A stretch of DNA of 5,820 nt, from the IMG/VR virus record IMGVR_UViG_2802429250_000001; one strand, written 5' to 3'. Positions 1,036-5,820 of this stretch are shown piece by piece. How positions within the stretch are numbered: position 1 is the stretch's first letter; the number at the start of each line of letters is the position of its first letter. The notes beneath the pieces were generated by a model. The model made no database searches. It saw only the letters and a list, made by a program, of their open reading frames with translations, and was not told the DNA's origin. Source of the DNA: a virus. Lineage: Duplodnaviria > Heunggongvirae > Uroviricota > Caudoviricetes. Made by a program: the position numbers and the translations under genes.

Positions 1036-1401
1036 ATGGCTGGGGCACAGCATACCCAAACTCACCCTAAATTTATATACACCTTCCTGGCGGTGCACCG
1101 TGATTGCATCGCTGACGGTAAAAATACTGTTCATGTAGCCGCCGATACGCTGGTTGATGCCTGCGAGATGCTCAATGACATGGGCTATATCTCGGCAACA
1201 TGGAAAGGGCGTGAAGAAAACACGTTGTTTATTCAGAAATGCGAAAACAATTTTATCTGGCGTTTTATCGCCCTGAGTACGGCACAACCGCGCGTGATTC
1301 ACATCGAGGCCACCAGCGAACAGGAAGCACGCCAGCAATCTCCTGATGGCTGCGTGATGGTATTCGCTGCCCGTATTCGCCAGGAGGTGGAGCATGTGTA
1401 A
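1036..1401 (+). CDS. Hypothetical protein, ORF1 (121 aa), first gene of the rightward operon
   Basis: ATG 1036-1038 preceded by GAGG (1024-1027) at 8-nt spacing; same frame as the spurious 31-1401 ORF. Stop TAA 1399-1401 overlaps the ORF2 start (ATGTGTAA). Confidence 0.55.
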   Translation: MAGAQHTQTHPKFIYTFLAVHRDCIADGKNTVHVAADTLVDACEMLNDMGYISATWKGREENTLFIQKCENNFIWRFIALSTAQPRVIHIEATSEQEARQQSPDGCVMVFAARIRQEVEHV

Positions 1402-1618
1402 TGCAACATGGCCTGATGCAGCGGTAGACGCTATCAAAACGCTGATGGATTCACTTATTGAGATTTCTGCTATCGCTGGTGTGGCGCATAAACACGCAGC
1501 CAGAGAATCAGAATGCATCTCCCATTATTTAGCATTTGTGCAGCTGAAAGCCGATCAGGCACTGGATAAGGCCGGAAAAATTATCATGGCTGATGTACAG
1601 GAGGTGCACCATGCATAA
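1394..1618 (+). CDS. Hypothetical protein, ORF2 (74 aa)
   Basis: ATG 1394-1396 preceded by AGGAGG (1383-1388) at 5-nt spacing; 8-nt start/stop overlap with both neighbours. Confidence 0.55.
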   Translation: MCNATWPDAAVDAIKTLMDSLIEISAIAGVAHKHAARESECISHYLAFVQLKADQALDKAGKIIMADVQEVHHA

Positions 1619-1976
1619 CCTGTCAATTTCTGACCTTAACAGCATTCAGTTTGACGAGAAATTTACCGGGCAGTTGCTGGTCAATGTGGAGAACGGGCGC
1701 ATAGTGCGTAATTACCACCTGCCGGATGGTGCAATTGCCGGAAGCGTTGAAGCATTGCTGGAACTGGCGGAACGTGCGCGACTGATTAAGCCGTCAACGT
1801 GCCATCACGATGATGATCTGCATTTTACCGGGTGTATGGTGAGTCACTACGAAAACGGCGTTGAAGTATCCTGCGAACGTCTGCGTGATGATTGCTGTTT
1901 CGGCACACTGCCGGAATTTATCGAATTGCTGACCAGTTGCGGTTATCAGGTCATTCAGGGGGGTAAACATGCGTGA
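1611..1976 (+). CDS. Hypothetical Cys/His-rich protein, ORF3 (121 aa)
   Basis: Start moved from the track's 1593 to ATG 1611-1613, which has AGGAGG (1599-1604) 6 nt upstream and overlaps the ORF2 stop as ATGCATAA. C-terminal half holds C-HH-x-H-C-H-C-CC-C spacing (STCHHDDDLHFTGC ... SCERLRDDCCFG ... TSCGY). Confidence 0.6.
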   Translation: MHNLSISDLNSIQFDEKFTGQLLVNVENGRIVRNYHLPDGAIAGSVEALLELAERARLIKPSTCHHDDDLHFTGCMVSHYENGVEVSCERLRDDCCFGTLPEFIELLTSCGYQVIQGGKHA

Positions 1977-2202
1977 TGATCGTTTTAATTCCCTGAAACA
2001 GGAGTTTGATGGCGCACCGGAAGATACATCGGGCGCATTGTTGAGCATTGCTGACATGATGAAAGCTGCATATTTTCTTATCAATACCAGGGGCTACAAG
2101 TCAGAGGGTGAAATGATTCTTAGTATTGCGTCGGACTATGCTGAATATGTGGCAGAGACGCGTTACAGAAGAAAATCTCTGGAGGATGTAAGCCATGCAT
2201 AA
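1969..2202 (+). CDS. Hypothetical protein, ORF4 (77 aa)
   Basis: ATG 1969-1971 follows a GGGGGG run (1957-1963) at 5-nt spacing; overlaps the ORF3 stop as ATGCGTGA and the ORF5 start as ATGCATAA. Confidence 0.55.
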   Translation: MRDDRFNSLKQEFDGAPEDTSGALLSIADMMKAAYFLINTRGYKSEGEMILSIASDYAEYVAETRYRRKSLEDVSHA

Positions 2203-2395
2203 TCATGAAGCGCATGTACCCGTAGTGCTTAATGTGCCAGATGATTTCACCGGACGCGTGCTGGTTTACCTTGATAAAGAAAAAGTGAAATCACAATGCC
2301 GACTGAAAAGTAATGAGATTGTGGGTTCTCCTGAATTTTTTTCTGAACTCTGTATTCGTGCAGAAATAAAACCGGAACTGCTGACAGGAAAATAA
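2195..2395 (+). CDS. Hypothetical protein, ORF5 (66 aa), apparent paralogue of the ORF3 N-terminal half
   Basis: ATG 2195-2197 with GGAGG (2181-2185) upstream. Ungapped alignment with ORF3 residues 1-56 gives identity at F18-T19-G20, L23-V24, L37, I42, G44-S45, E47, E51-L52, R55-A56. Confidence 0.55.
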   Translation: MHNHEAHVPVVLNVPDDFTGRVLVYLDKEKVKSQCRLKSNEIVGSPEFFSELCIRAEIKPELLTGK

Positions 2396-2399
2396 AACC

Positions 2400-2690
2400 A
2401 TGAAAAGGAAAAATTCTGGCTTTACTGCCAGCGGTCTCTCTCGGCCTGAAATCAGACACGGAGATATTTACCGCGACACCAGACGTGGGGGACGAGTGGT
2501 TATTCGTCACGTTACGCCAGGCAATATCACCTACCGCCGTGAGGCTTACGAATATGACTGCGTAATGCCGCGCCGTCAGTTTGAGCGTGATTTTATTCTG
2601 GTTGAAAACAAACAACAGGCAGTGGCAAGACGTGCAGCCACGAATATTAAAAAAATCCGGGCAATGTTGGTTGCGGGAGGTAAGAAGTGA
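2400..2690 (+). CDS. Hypothetical basic (Arg/Lys-rich) protein, ORF6 (96 aa), translationally coupled to the replication gene
   Basis: ATG 2400-2402 with AGGAA (2386-2390) upstream; stop TGA 2688-2690 overlaps the GTG start of the next gene (GTGA). The translated product is visibly rich in Arg and Lys. Confidence 0.55.
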   Translation: MKRKNSGFTASGLSRPEIRHGDIYRDTRRGGRVVIRHVTPGNITYRREAYEYDCVMPRRQFERDFILVENKQQAVARRAATNIKKIRAMLVAGGKK

Positions 2691-4486
2691 AAAACGCACC
2701 GAATTTAAAATATCAGCCGAAGGATAAATTCACCGAGGTAATCATTTTTGCCGGGACGGATGCTTACGCCCATGCTCAACACTGGATTGAAAGCGAAGGA
2801 CGAAAACACGGCGATAACGTGCCTCCTGTTTACCTGGGGCCAAAGCAACTGGCAGACCTGGCGAATATCCGCATTGTCGACGATGAACGCCGCTTTGCGC
2901 GTGTCTATCTCGCGGGGGAGATAGAGCCAATCCAGATCAATGCTATTGCTGAAAAGCTGGCGCTGGCTGGTGTACAGGACGCGAAATTATACAAAGGTAT
3001 CACCGACCGGGAGCCGGAAAACTGGCGCGACTACCTGCAACGGATCCGCGAACAGGCAGAGAGTGGGGAAGTTTCAGCGATGAAATTAGCCACAAAAAAT
3101 ATTGACCTATCTAGGCCAGCACTAAATCAGATGGGAGCCAGCCAGAGAGGGGAAGTGTTACTTGAATATTATGGAAGAGCACTGGCTATAAATGATGATT
3201 CTGATGTAGTTCACCATTACAACGGAATTGTCTGGGTGCCTGTATCTGATAAGGAACTCCAGCGGGCTATGGCGCAGATTTTTATTGATGCGGAAATCAG
3301 CTATTCGCAGAACGCCATCAAATCGGCGGTCGATACCATGAAGTTAAGTTTGCCCGTAATGGGGAATACAGCCCGTAACCTGATTGGATTCAGTAACGGG
3401 GTATTTGATACCAGAACTGGTAATTTTCGGGAGCATAACAAAAACGACTGGTTGTTAATTGCCAGTGAATTACCTTTCAGCCCACCAGCAGAGGGGGAAA
3501 CGCTGGCAACACATGCGCCGAATTTCTGGAAGTGGTTGCGCCGTTCGGTGGCTGAGAATGACCGCAAGGCAGATCGCGTACTGGCGGCGTTATTCATGGT
3601 GCTGGCGAATCGGTACGACTGGCAGTTATTTCTTGAGGTAACGGGGCCGGGTGGAAGCGGTAAAAGCGTAATGGCGGAGATTTGCACTATGCTGGCGGGT
3701 AAGGCCAACACGGTATCGGCAAGCATGAAGGCGCTGGAAGATGCCAGGGAACGTGCGTTAGTGGTTGGCTTTTCGCTGATTATCATGCCGGATATGACCC
3801 GTTACGCTGGTGATGGTGCAGGGATTAAGGCCATTACAGGCGGTGATAAGGTGGCAATCGACCCGAAACATAAAGCCCCCTACTCAACACGCATTCAGGC
3901 GGTCGTGCTGGCGGTGAACAATAACGCCATGTCATTCAGTGACCGCAGCGGTGGGATATCACGTCGTCGGGTAATATTCAATTTTTCGGAAGTTGTACCG
4001 GAGAACGAACGTGACCCTATGCTGGCTGAAAAAATAGAAGGAGAGCTGGCGGTAGTGATTCGCCACCTGCTTACACGCTTTTCTGACCAGGACGAAGCTA
4101 AACGCCTGCTATATGAGCAGCAGAAATCAGAAGAAGCCCTGGTGATAAAACGCGAGGGCGATTCGCTGGTGGACTTCTGCGGCTATCTCATGTCGTCGGT
4201 AATGTGCGATGGCCTGTTAGTGGGTAATGCTGAAATTATTCCGTTCAGCCCGCGCAGGTATCTCTATCACGCCTATCTGGCGTATATGAGGGCACACGGA
4301 TTCGGTAAGCCCGTAACACTGACACGCTTCGGTAAGGATATGCCAGGGGCAATGGCGGAATACGGCAGGGAGTATATGAAACGGAAAACGAAGCATGGCT
4401 TGCGTTCAAACGTGATACTGACAGAGGATTCAGAAGACTGGATGCCCTCATGTGCATCGGTCACAAATGACGATGGCAAAAATTAA
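2687..4486 (+). CDS. Replication initiator/helicase, phage P4 alpha family (D5_N-like region + SF3 helicase P-loop + C-terminal region), 599 aa
   Basis: GTG start 2687-2689 with GGGAGG (2675-2680) at 6-nt spacing. Walker A GPGGSGKS at aa 320-327 (nt 3644-3667); Walker B-like SLIIMPD; SF3 motif C-like VLAVNNN; D5_N-like stretch GFSNGVFDTRTGNFREH. Iterons of the P4 alpha-binding type lie immediately downstream. Confidence 0.85.
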   Translation: MKNAPNLKYQPKDKFTEVIIFAGTDAYAHAQHWIESEGRKHGDNVPPVYLGPKQLADLANIRIVDDERRFARVYLAGEIEPIQINAIAEKLALAGVQDAKLYKGITDREPENWRDYLQRIREQAESGEVSAMKLATKNIDLSRPALNQMGASQRGEVLLEYYGRALAINDDSDVVHHYNGIVWVPVSDKELQRAMAQIFIDAEISYSQNAIKSAVDTMKLSLPVMGNTARNLIGFSNGVFDTRTGNFREHNKNDWLLIASELPFSPPAEGETLATHAPNFWKWLRRSVAENDRKADRVLAALFMVLANRYDWQLFLEVTGPGGSGKSVMAEICTMLAGKANTVSASMKALEDARERALVVGFSLIIMPDMTRYAGDGAGIKAITGGDKVAIDPKHKAPYSTRIQAVVLAVNNNAMSFSDRSGGISRRRVIFNFSEVVPENERDPMLAEKIEGELAVVIRHLLTRFSDQDEAKRLLYEQQKSEEALVIKREGDSLVDFCGYLMSSVMCDGLLVGNAEIIPFSPRRYLYHAYLAYMRAHGFGKPVTLTRFGKDMPGAMAEYGREYMKRKTKHGLRSNVILTEDSEDWMPSCASVTNDDGKN

Positions 4487-4500
4487 ACTTATGGAATAAC

Positions 4501-4654
4501 TGTTCATCAAACTATTCACTGTTCACCTTTTTGATTATTTGTTGAGCTTTAAGGGTGAACAGTGGTGAACAGTTGGTGAATAGTTTTTGTGAAACTGTTC
4601 ACCCCTTAACACAATGAATTAAAAGGAGAAACGGAAAAGGTGAACAGGTGAAGG
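4501..4654. repeat. Iteron cluster, P4 ori/crr type: about 8 copies of TGTTCACC / GGTGAACA in both orientations
   Basis: TGTTCATC 4501-4508; TGTTCACC 4520-4527 and 4596-4603; GGTGAACA 4554-4561, 4564-4571 and 4639-4646; GGTGAATA 4575-4582; GGTGAAGG 4647-4654. The three copies at 4554-4582 are spaced 10-11 bp apart. Confidence 0.75.
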
Positions 4655-4741: not shown

Positions 4742-4942
4742 TTGACAGAACACAGGCTGAGGGGGGCGATAAAAATTATCGACCGCAACGCCGGGGAAGG
4801 ATACGCGAAAGTACATCCCGAACTGATAAGCGCATTCATGACAACGGCAGCGGCAAACTTTGCCACGCTGACAGAACGGGAGATTGCCGAAGCTGAACAG
4901 GTGACAATCATCAACGTTAAAACCGGAGAGCAAACAGCATGA
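4742..4942 (+). CDS. Hypothetical small protein or decayed gene fragment (no canonical start)
   Basis: The track ORF starts at TTG 4742 with no Shine-Dalgarno; the internal ATG 4838 also lacks one. The frame is open from 4703. Translation (GAIKIIDRNAGEGYAKVHPELISAF...) looks protein-like, but start support is poor. Confidence 0.25.
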   Translation: MTEHRLRGAIKIIDRNAGEGYAKVHPELISAFMTTAAANFATLTEREIAEAEQVTIINVKTGEQTA

Positions 4943-5157
4943 CGGTACAAATATCCGCTTACGGGCGGCAGGTGGCTGATCTGCACTCAAAAACCACCAG
5001 CAAGGGAACACCAATGGCAATGGCGAGTATGGCAGTTCCCCTTCCGCGCAGCCAGGCAGATGACGGAACGGCGAAACGTGGCTGGTCTGGTTATCGCAGA
5101 CAGCGTAATCAGTGCGCGAACGGTGCGGCTGGGCGGCAAAAAAGGCCAGCAGAGTGA
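4939..5157 (+). CDS. Hypothetical small basic protein (72 aa)
   Basis: ATG 4939-4941 preceded by GGAGAG (4926-4931) at 7-nt spacing; overlaps the upstream ORF stop (ATGA). Product is low-complexity and basic, so it may be a gene remnant. Confidence 0.35.
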   Translation: MTVQISAYGRQVADLHSKTTSKGTPMAMASMAVPLPRSQADDGTAKRGWSGYRRQRNQCANGAAGRQKRPAE

Positions 5158-5234
5158 TCCGTACGGTGATGGAATACCATTTGGGGATATCGTATAAATA
5201 AACCTTAGCATAGCGTTATATAAAGGTGATATAT

Positions 5235-5561
5235 ATGATTTACTTTGTGAAGAAATTTAGTGAAATAGTGGAAAAGTCTTCTGGTGCTTTGTCTTTCGGG
5301 ATTATACAGAGTCTCGTTATGATAGGTATAATTGCAAATTTATCTTCTCAAACAGGTGTAAGGTATTTCATCTTGCTTACTATTGCATTTATTGCAACTA
5401 TAAGTATTGCATTATGTATGTTGAGTATAATATCTGTTATTAACGAAGTGACAGGAAAACATAAGTACATGAAGTTTTTGTTTGGGATTCTGCTGTACCC
5501 TTCTTTTATTGGTGTTATTCTTTCTGCGTACCTGAGTATTAAAGCACTAATAGTCAGTTAA
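5235..5561 (+). CDS. Small integral membrane protein (about 108 aa, three predicted transmembrane helices) in an AT-rich islet
   Basis: ATG 5235-5237 with AAAGGTGA (5222-5229) upstream, preferred over the track's GTG 5226. Three hydrophobic stretches: GALSFGIIQSLVMIGIIANL, VRYFILLTIAFIATISIALCMLSIISVI, FLFGILLYPSFIGVILSAYLSI. A 50-nt sample counted 30% G+C against about 50% for the rest of the window. TATAAA at 5193-5198 is a candidate -10. Confidence 0.6.
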   Translation: MIYFVKKFSEIVEKSSGALSFGIIQSLVMIGIIANLSSQTGVRYFILLTIAFIATISIALCMLSIISVINEVTGKHKYMKFLFGILLYPSFIGVILSAYLSIKALIVS

Positions 5562-5640: not shown

Positions 5641-5820
5641 ATGAAAAGTACACATGGAAAAGCTGACCATCAACAGAAATTACGGTATGCCACAAAAATG
5701 GTACAGGAGACGCAACAGCAGGATAAAACCACATCGGCATATAAAGTGATGCCCGGTAATCAGAACGCGCAGCAGAAGCCCACAGGGGCGACACCGTGGC
5801 GGCATATGACCAAACGCCAG
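5641..5820 (+). CDS. 5' part of a hypothetical gene that runs off the right edge of the window
   Basis: The frame is open from 5584 to the window end. First ATG at 5641 (MKSTHGKADHQQKLRYATKMVQETQQQDKTTSAYKVMPGNQNAQQKPTGATPWRHMTKRQ...); alternative ATGs at 5698 and 5749. Absent from the ORF track because it has no stop in the window. Shine-Dalgarno is weak. Confidence 0.35.
   Translation, partial: MKSTHGKADHQQKLRYATKMVQETQQQDKTTSAYKVMPGNQNAQQKPTGATPWRHMTKRQ

Follow-up and report, generated by a model that had tools for sequence, protein, structure and literature searches.

Six small, chained open reading frames (ORFs) at positions 1036 to 2690 of the IMG/VR virus record IMGVR_UViG_2802429250_000001, a 5,820-nucleotide Caudoviricetes sequence (hereafter the window, meaning the whole stretch of DNA analyzed), probably make up the leading part of an early/replication operon in an Escherichia coli satellite of the phage-inducible chromosomal island (PICI) or capsid-forming PICI (cf-PICI) type. 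Comparison with related operons shows that an Icd-like gene at the front, a DUF4222 gene at the end and the N-terminal module of the replicase behind it are fixed, while a repeated module, here called the FTG unit, and other small gene families between them are exchangeable. The window is the entire contig PTSE01000071.1 of GCA_002965135.1; it ends before int and alpA and lacks the packaging genes too. Loci and homologous proteins are cited below by our own handles (L and P numbers, respectively). The ORFs and the replication features into which they lead are as follows.

1036-1401, + strand: ORF1, 121 aa
1394-1618, + strand: ORF2, 74 aa
1611-1976, + strand: ORF3, 121 aa
1969-2202, + strand: ORF4, 77 aa
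2195-2395, + strand: ORF5, 66 aa
2400-2690, + strand: ORF6, 96 aa
2687-4486, + strand: replication gene (REP), 599 aa, GTG start
4499-4648, both orientations: iterons, about seven copies of GGTGAACAG/CTGTTCACC, directly 3' of REP

On recheck, the positions, lengths and frames of the six ORFs matched exactly those given in an earlier note made from the sequence alone. The junctions it described were also found: four 8-nt overlaps (in order, ATGTGTAA, ATGCATAA, ATGCGTGA and ATGCATAA) chain ORF1 to ORF5, and a GTGA overlap joins ORF6 to REP; ORF5 and ORF6 are separated by a 4-nt gap, where no overlap had been claimed. Purine-rich motifs resembling Shine-Dalgarno (SD) sequences lie 5 to 12 nt upstream of every ORF start, in line with the note's claim of an SD sequence before each start. 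They include AGGAGGTG twice, GGAGGA and GGGAGGT, with weaker versions for ORF4 (GGGGGG) and ORF6 (AGGA). The overlaps, together with the 50% identity between REP and the alpha protein of satellite P4, support the proposal of a translationally coupled chain 5' of a P4-alpha-related replication gene. Ribosomes would pass from gene to gene via the overlaps, keeping expression of the products linked. The agreement of three lines of evidence argues that the six ORFs are genuine coding genes: all are called by independent gene callers, each matches a PHROG family (1e-18 to 1e-48), and the ratios of nonsynonymous to synonymous substitution rates (Ka/Ks) against diverged copies range from 0.06 to 0.33 in most comparisons. 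The exceptions are ORF4, with values of 0.15 to 1.06 (0.60 and 1.06 in the closer comparisons), and ORF6, with 0.48 against L007; one ORF5 comparison was saturated.

What kind of element carries this operon? The earlier note took it for a P4-type satellite, an assignment that has to be replaced by PICI/cf-PICI type, as the relatives of the window have int, AlpA and AntA/Rha genes and lack sid, delta and psu. Segments of the block occur in 1454 of 5426 complete E. coli genomes, 103 of which cover at least 80% of it. The closest complete relative (L001, 97% identical) is an island of avian pathogenic E. coli (APEC) IMT5155, located at tRNA-Thr beside proA. Its genes run in the order int, a hypothetical gene, a helix-turn-helix (HTH) regulator in the AlpA position, AntA/AntB, a divergent YlcI/YnfO gene and the operon, which is followed by a frameshifted gene for a single-stranded DNA-binding protein (SSB), ProQ, PerC and DUF4747, with no capsid genes. 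In other relatives AlpA is annotated by Pfam, and in L020, L021 and L032 major capsid and decoration genes lie downstream, as in cf-PICIs. The PICI order of int, an AlpA-type gene and pri-rep at an attachment (att) site was found in L001 (tRNA-Thr), L007, L021 (tRNA-Pro), L026 to L035 and L036. This arrangement is the integrase-proximal (regulation/replication) module common to PICIs and cf-PICIs (PMC10085698; PMC6092414), and the relatives of the window resemble EcCICFT073 and EcCIEDL933 in having int, AlpA, accessory genes, pri-rep and iterons after rep, as well as in the exchange of several Pri-Rep allelic types between elements. Published accounts of the module treat the genes between alpA and pri-rep as hypothetical and describe neither the two anchors (Icd-like and DUF4222) nor the FTG unit nor the divergent YlcI/YnfO gene (PMC10085698; PMC6092414).

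The P4 left operon, which consists of a first ORF (an Ash/Icd-like region with kil, eta and cI), epsilon, orf151, cnr and alpha, is similar to the window operon in several respects. It is a chain of small ORFs with 8-nt ATGnnTRA/GTGnnTAA overlaps leading into the replication gene, it has an Icd-like domain in the first ORF, and the helicase/C-terminal part of alpha is 50% identical to REP. It differs in the remaining components: the window operon has no homologue of epsilon, cnr or orf151 and lacks an Ash domain, a CI/C4 RNA and the primase domain of alpha. The earlier note had looked to P4 for the genes in this position, and Pfam and BLASTP searches found no counterpart of the P4 early genes epsilon (PF25738) and cnr (DUF5375) among ORF1 to ORF6; P4 epsilon and cnr themselves strongly matched their own families. 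Nor does any of ORF2 to ORF5 resemble P4 epsilon, orf151 or cnr. The sid, delta and psu genes are absent from the window and are not annotated in the L001 island or in the fetched stretches of the other islands examined, and tblastn searches with the P4 proteins yielded nothing in L007 to L019. An Rfam E-value scan of the window for the CI/C4 immunity RNA gave only one spurious microRNA match, on the iterons.

REP carries the Pfam domains D5_N, DUF5906 and Pox_D5 and is laid out as an N-terminal module of about 135 aa, a P4-alpha-type superfamily 3 (SF3) helicase and a C-terminal DNA-binding region. Its residues 141 to 593 align with residues 322 to 775 of P4 alpha at 50% identity, a stretch that spans the helicase and the C-terminal region; the primase domain of alpha (aa 1 to 320) is absent, its place being taken by the unrelated module of about 135 aa. 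The N-terminal 130 aa or so (2687-3100) recur at 43 to 91% identity in front of D5_N/DUF5906, AAA_25/RepA and DUF927 helicases. This module, shared by L021, L023, L024, L027, L029 and L032, always comes after a DUF4222 gene and has no match in Pfam or in the Protein Data Bank (PDB). By analogy with PICIs, in which the origin lies 3' of rep (PMC6092414), the iteron cluster directly 3' of REP is a probable replication origin; its position agrees with that of the PICI origin, and iterons adjoining pri-rep, a recognized mark of PICIs, are present here.

ORF6 is a DUF4222 protein (PF13973; 69.8 bits against a cutoff of 27, 1.4e-19, aa 16-68). In all satellite loci examined a gene of this type lies directly 5' of the replication gene, the sole exception being L008, a Pectobacterium locus with no DUF4222 gene, and the overlap between the two genes is 4 nt wherever they are separate. 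In L043 (2711-4354), one 547-aa ORF carries both DUF4222 and DUF927, and neighbouring assemblies have two coupled genes there; this natural fusion hints that DUF4222 and the replication protein work together. ORF6 would act with or on the replication initiator, from a position similar to that of cnr in P4 and with no relation to it.

The operons sampled, about 20 in number and taken from E. coli and its relatives, share one template: a divergent YlcI/YnfO gene (annotated in most), the Icd-like gene, one to five small genes, the DUF4222 gene and the replication gene. Between the Icd-like and DUF4222 genes, the lengths of the middle genes take many forms (74 / 106 / 78-70-72 / 154-77 / 76-74-121-77-77 / 121-66 / 121 / 75 aa), and so do the families, two of which (cassette families D and E) have no member in the window. 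The middle genes of individual loci are as follows.

L020: one 74-aa gene of another family
L025: one 106-aa gene
L024: an ORF2-like gene, a single FTG unit and family D
L023: an ORF2-ORF4 fusion, then family D
L022: five genes
L026 to L031, L034 and L035: ORF3 and ORF5 only
L033: ORF3 only

The sequence before the ATG is kept whichever module comes next: ...GGAGGATGTAAGCC-ATG stands before ORF5 in the window and L021 and before family D in L022 and L023. Exchange thus takes place at the start/stop junctions. ORF2 to ORF5 belong to a pool of small accessory genes, swapped at these sequences.

Satellites and temperate phages share this pool, as a comparison of gene content shows. The FTG unit is found in 11 related prophage loci (from Atlantibacter, Citrobacter, Enterobacter and relatives), each time in the early-left operon, which has a cI-like repressor and many small ORFs, then xis and int. 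In another prophage (L039), the unit lies between genes of families D and E, after an Icd-like gene. Icd-like, family D, FTG-unit and family E genes therefore occur together, in similar order, in prophage early-left and satellite early operons. Temperate enterobacterial early-left (pL-type) regions are alike in their runs of small overlapping genes after a cI-like repressor; the difference lies at the end of the run, which is xis and int, with a ParE-like toxin module, in the prophages, and DUF4222 and the replicase in the satellites. The shared pool implies that ORF2 to ORF5 most likely act early, on targets in the host or in competing phages. Host- or phage-directed roles are the most likely ones for these four proteins, given their variability, their early expression and, by analogy, the ECOR61 result described below.

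The earlier note recognized none of the six products. Two are in fact recognizable by profile: ORF6, as described above, and ORF1, which matches the NCBIfam Icd-like profile NF033153 with 80.6 bits (cutoff 25; 6.2e-23; aa 73-116). ORF1 consists of two Icd-like repeats in tandem, at about aa 7-56 and aa 73-116. Its N-terminal half scores 18.4 bits against a profile made from C-terminal Icd-like domains only, compared to a maximum of 6.7 in 1000 shuffles, and an AlphaFold2 (AF2) model of moderate confidence (predicted local distance difference test [pLDDT] score of 67.6) has the order beta-beta-alpha-beta twice. Short Icd-like forms of 67-68 aa, which are common, are without exactly the first ORF1 repeat. 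The first ORF of the P4 left operon (ORF137), the homologue of ORF1, has an Icd-like domain at its C terminus (7.8e-21), and P4-type Ash/Icd-like ORFs of about 205 aa (P0212, P0219-P0229 and P0251) carry an Icd-like motif at each end with the Ash region between them. Gain and loss of Icd-like repeats seems to be general in this family, since the P4-type ORFs also hold two motifs.

The PHROGs label for the ORF1 family is "transcriptional repressor," and the P4 GenBank record labels ORF137 ("cI gene product") alike; we take this label on the Icd-like family as inherited annotation. ORF1 is likely a toxic or cell-division-blocking effector, a role assigned by analogy because of the Icd family name and the ECOR61 experiment. 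The immI operon of phage P1, icd-ant, also starts with a small gene translationally coupled to its neighbor, and Icd is an inhibitor of host cell division. The NCBIfam Icd-like domain is found both there and in ORF1; the window differs from P1 in having two copies of the domain with no ant gene behind them, and a C4 antisense RNA was not found in it.

The likeness between ORF3 and ORF5, proposed earlier as the trace of a duplicated unit, withstands a shuffle test. ORF3 aa 1-61 and ORF5 aa 1-60 share 20 of 61 identities (33%; BLASTP E = 2e-6), and their Smith-Waterman score of 65 compares with 20.9 +/- 3.8 for shuffled ORF5 (z = 11.6), none of 1000 being as good, which places the similarity of the two sequences beyond chance. 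The unit exists, and the duplication goes further than had been noted, ORF3 itself being a tandem of the ORF5-like unit. Both proteins match phrog_340, ORF3 in two stretches (2.3e-28) and ORF5 once; the N and C halves of ORF3 resemble each other (z = 7.4, 0/1000 shuffles), and ORF5 can also be aligned to the second half of ORF3. At the sequence level, the operon has three FTG units of about 50-60 aa, two in ORF3 and one in ORF5.

About aa 1-60 and aa 62-121 of ORF3, + strand: two FTG units (two phrog_340 stretches, internal z = 7.4)
Within 2195-2395, + strand: the single FTG unit of ORF5

The pattern of the unit can be written as ...FTG(R/Q)hhh.hENG.h....L.D..h.(G/A)(S/T)...F.EL....AG..V. The unit is rare: when 1.84 billion representative proteins were searched exhaustively with its profile, only 68 members came out at E <= 1e-3. 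In a motif-based scan of one genome per species, members were confined to Enterobacterales, a cross-species survey that is small (13 loci only) and biased to one motif variant. Fusions of the unit are few, to Bro-N (P0164, by eye) and to AntA (P0053, precomputed PF08346), and the homologue P0170 has a DnaG-like, zinc-finger-like N-terminal segment (by eye). Several protein variants look like recombinants of units, with joins at FTG (P0047), GSVE (P0041) and ENGVEV (P0035). In P0070, the ORF3 leader is joined to the ORF5 body, and natural one-unit variants of ORF3 also resemble recombinants between units. The number of FTG units would change through recombination between copies. The unit has no family in the local Pfam copy, and some homologues carry the newer PF27490; a tblastn search of GenBank phages with ORF5 gave no match.

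ORF2 matches phrog_5146 (1.7e-48) with Ka/Ks values of 0.14 to 0.28, and it is present or absent among otherwise alike operons. ORF4 matches phrog_24341 (3.2e-46) and is the fastest evolving of the six in the closer comparisons. All 66 of its homologues with a named source in a word-indexed search come from E. coli, to which tblastn adds a copy in E. ruysiae (L007), and ORF4 is also found fused to ORF2-like or ORF3 proteins. For ORF2 to ORF5 the earlier verdict of no recognized product holds, since none of the four has a characterized match in Pfam, NCBIfam, PADLOC or PDB. Profile-profile comparisons for ORF2, ORF4, ORF6, the FTG unit and three other cassette families revealed no distant kinship, with probabilities below 5% throughout. 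PDB sequence searches with ORF1, ORF2, ORF6 and the REP N terminus, and with FTG-unit and ORF4 profiles, returned chance-level matches only, and no window protein matches a PADLOC defense model. One further feature lies at the boundary between ORF3 and ORF4.

1958-1963, + strand: run of six G (G6), just 5' of the ORF4 ATG

This run is G6 in the window, L003 and L022 and G9 in L007 (E. ruysiae, 5758-5779). Fusions of ORF3 and ORF4 with a length of 196 aa (P0007-P0009 and P0013) read ...VIQGVNMRDD, as predicted for one G fewer, and the fused form is present in several hundred database sequences. The length of the G run appears to set whether ORF3 and ORF4 are separate or fused, and the fusion could be slippage-driven switching or an assembly error.

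Another question is how the operon might be regulated. The region 5' of ORF1 contains the following features.

543-848, - strand: YlcI/YnfO-family (DUF3950) gene, 101 aa (NF041551, 5e-18; phrog_6522)
871-901: palindrome 1, TGTGATTC-N15-GAATCACA
910-938: candidate promoter read by eye, TTGACC (910-915), 17 nt, TAATTT (933-938)
916-946: palindrome 2, TGTGATTC-N15-AAATCACA, abutting the candidate promoter
972-1005, + strand: leader hairpin, GC-rich, with an 8-bp perfect stem, before the ORF1 SD, no T-run after it

The YlcI/YnfO protein has an N terminus resembling a ribbon-helix-helix (RHH) domain (NF041551, with a weak Rv0623-like match), and the divergent gene is in the same position in L001, L020-L025, L027, L036 and L038. 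The palindromes are 45 bp apart and have the form TGTGATTC-N15-(G/A)AATCACA; the pair is kept in L001, L003, L021 and L027. Transcription of the operon would probably start from about 910-938, overlapped by two palindromic operators, and the divergent YlcI/YnfO RHH protein probably binds these palindromes as the regulator of the operon. Gene and palindromes thus constitute a candidate repressor-operator system of Gram-negative PICIs. The leader (950-1040) has a minimum free energy of -25.4 kcal/mol with a z-score of only -1.76, and its hairpin is kept in L001, L021, L024, L025 and L027. In EcCICFT073, AlpA activates the island genes and helper phages induce alpA, and both helper induction and high-frequency transfer have been demonstrated (PMC6092414). 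Related PICIs rely for expression on AlpA, which is turned on by helpers. A further gene of 66 aa (285-485, - strand) lies downstream of the YlcI/YnfO gene; it matches no family, and its annotation in relatives is hypothetical.

The only experimental lead to the function of such operons comes from ECOR61, which is killed by the phage accessory gene orf24 (Silas et al. 2023, 10.1101/2023.04.06.535777). Tn5 suppressors of this death lie in a 366-nt (121-aa) Icd-like gene and two overlapping small genes. Removal of the Icd-like gene abolishes the effect, and reconstitution, which gave a weaker effect, needed all six linked genes, including a primase (10.1101/2023.04.06.535777). The ECOR61 locus (contig QOYT01000045.1) is similar in layout to the window operon, and ORF1 is matched by its first gene in length (366 nt) and in annotation; the locus has six genes in all, compared with genes of 74, 121, 77, 66 and 96 aa plus REP after ORF1 in the window. 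By analogy, this lead points to toxicity and abortive infection via the Icd-like gene and the next two small genes.

Would the operon front then be a dedicated abortive-infection or superinfection-exclusion module, whose small proteins sense phage and release the Icd-like toxin, with the cassette setting which phages are detected? The location of the ECOR61 suppressors in the Icd-like and next two small genes and the loss of the effect without the Icd-like gene argue for such a module, as do the turnover and mosaicism of the middle genes, which resemble those of defense and counter-defense loci, and the relaxed or positive selection on ORF4 in close comparisons. We nevertheless see only a small chance of this, because no PADLOC model matches any of the proteins, the same gene families occur in ordinary prophage early operons, and the likeness between the ECOR61 small genes and ORF2 to ORF5 is so far one of layout. 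Moreover, the weak six-gene reconstitution fits equally well with the toxic induction of a satellite operon, which has been suggested for P4 and abc1 (10.1101/2023.04.06.535777). That ORF2 to ORF5 assist satellite replication or copy-number control, doing the job of P4 cnr or orf151 rather than acting on host or phage, appears quite improbable. In favor of it, the four genes stand between the start of the operon and the replicase, to which they are translationally coupled, the FTG unit is often directly 5' of DUF4222 and the replicase, and its distant homologue P0170 has the DnaG-type zinc-finger-like N terminus read by eye. Yet operons with near-identical Icd, DUF4222 and replicase genes miss some or all of ORF2 to ORF5, indicating that the replication module can do without these genes. 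Moreover, the cassettes are found with three unrelated types of helicase and also occur beside cI in prophage early-left operons with no replication gene adjoining, and, as noted, none resembles cnr or orf151.

It is likewise unlikely that the FTG proteins ORF3 and ORF5 are antitoxin-like binders of ParE-like toxins, that is, satellite orphans neutralizing a toxin of the helper prophage or of the operon. In all 11 related prophage loci (L009-L019), a PF24732 ParE-like gene comes directly after the unit gene on the same strand, with spacings from a 4-nt overlap (L009) to about 200 nt where the ends were determined, and this is the canonical order of antitoxin, then toxin (PF24732 was matched at E values of 1e-18 to 1e-20 in the three proteins scanned; the other loci were identified by tblastn). 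These loci are mutually related, however, so their synteny is not independent evidence. In L039, which represents an independent prophage lineage, a 115-120-aa family lies directly before the ParE-like gene and the unit is 1.5 kb upstream; that family is the likelier toxin partner, and the unit looks like an inserted cassette. Neither is there a ParE-like gene in any satellite locus examined or a toxin gene in the window. A type II antitoxin function of the unit, raised from the ParE-like adjacency, was downgraded after L039, and the unit is treated as an independent cassette because L039 separates it from the ParE-like gene. Finally, it is hardly credible that the six include ORFs that arose by chance or are remnants in decay. 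The nearby SSB gene is frameshifted in the window element, ORF5 is frameshifted in L021, and RefSeq gives ORF1 a shorter start in one genome, all of which would fit decay; against it stand the mostly low Ka/Ks values and the PHROG family of every ORF, the conservation of frames and overlaps in diverged elements and other species, and the N-terminal part of ORF1, which is kept at the protein level and folds at pLDDT 81-87.

The assignment of the six ORFs to a regulated early/replication operon of a PICI-type satellite also has several points weighing against it. The promoter read by eye falls below threshold, and a consensus scan listed none in 849-1035. The repressor role of the YlcI/YnfO protein follows from position, RHH-like sequence and nearby palindromes only, and the existence of a repressor in Gram-negative PICIs has been stated to be unclear (PMC6092414). 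The small genes of ECOR61 encode about 61 and 63 aa, compared with 74 and 121 aa for ORF2 and ORF3, so that the link consists of the first gene and the layout; the 121/61/63-aa pattern was found in no sampled operon. The only characterized DUF4222 protein, RgdR of enterohemorrhagic E. coli (EHEC) O157:H7 (OI-51), is reported to activate the locus of enterocyte effacement (LEE) and type III secretion via Ler (PMC10877973), which describes it as a type III secretion regulator, not a replication factor. RgdR also comes from a prophage-type island and is likened to ORF6 through the DUF4222 domain, ORF6 being instead the coupled partner of a replication gene. Lastly, given the SSB frameshift, the window copy of the element may be decaying.

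Three observations concern neighboring genes. In prophages, a 115-120-aa gene is linked to a 72-aa PF24732 ParE-like gene (L009, 5591-6398; L039, 3837-4399), directly in L039 and with the FTG unit inserted between them in L009-L019; the two genes are possibly an uncharacterized toxin-antitoxin pair. In the window, the ORF at 4939-5157 starts like a satellite SSB (MTVQISAYGR...) and loses the frame some 40 aa later; in L001, too, the SSB gene is marked as frameshifted by RefSeq. The segment 5201-5600 is AT-rich (GC 0.31 versus about 0.49 elsewhere) and has the look of a foreign insertion or cargo gene; the hydrophobic 111-aa ORF that it contains (5226-5561) matches nothing in Pfam.

The suggestion of the earlier note that ORF1 to ORF6 are candidates for new helper-manipulation or anti-defense functions is a reasonable guess. 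A bolder idea, to which we attach little probability, is that the middle genes are interchangeable sensor/adaptor modules that link the sensing of specific early phage proteins both to satellite replication and to the Icd-like toxin, with recombination at junctions and units, and perhaps slippage at the G run, diversifying the response. If true, satellites would carry a modular, self-diversifying phage-sensing system shared with temperate phages. Overall, the block is widespread in E. coli genomes, yet four of its six products are functionally uncharacterized. Which genes of Gram-negative PICIs interfere with helpers, and whether a repressor exists, are questions for which the operon front, with its divergent YlcI/YnfO gene and palindromes, is an obvious place to look. 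With its parts sorted and the link to ECOR61 drawn, a row of hypothetical proteins becomes a short list of testable roles.

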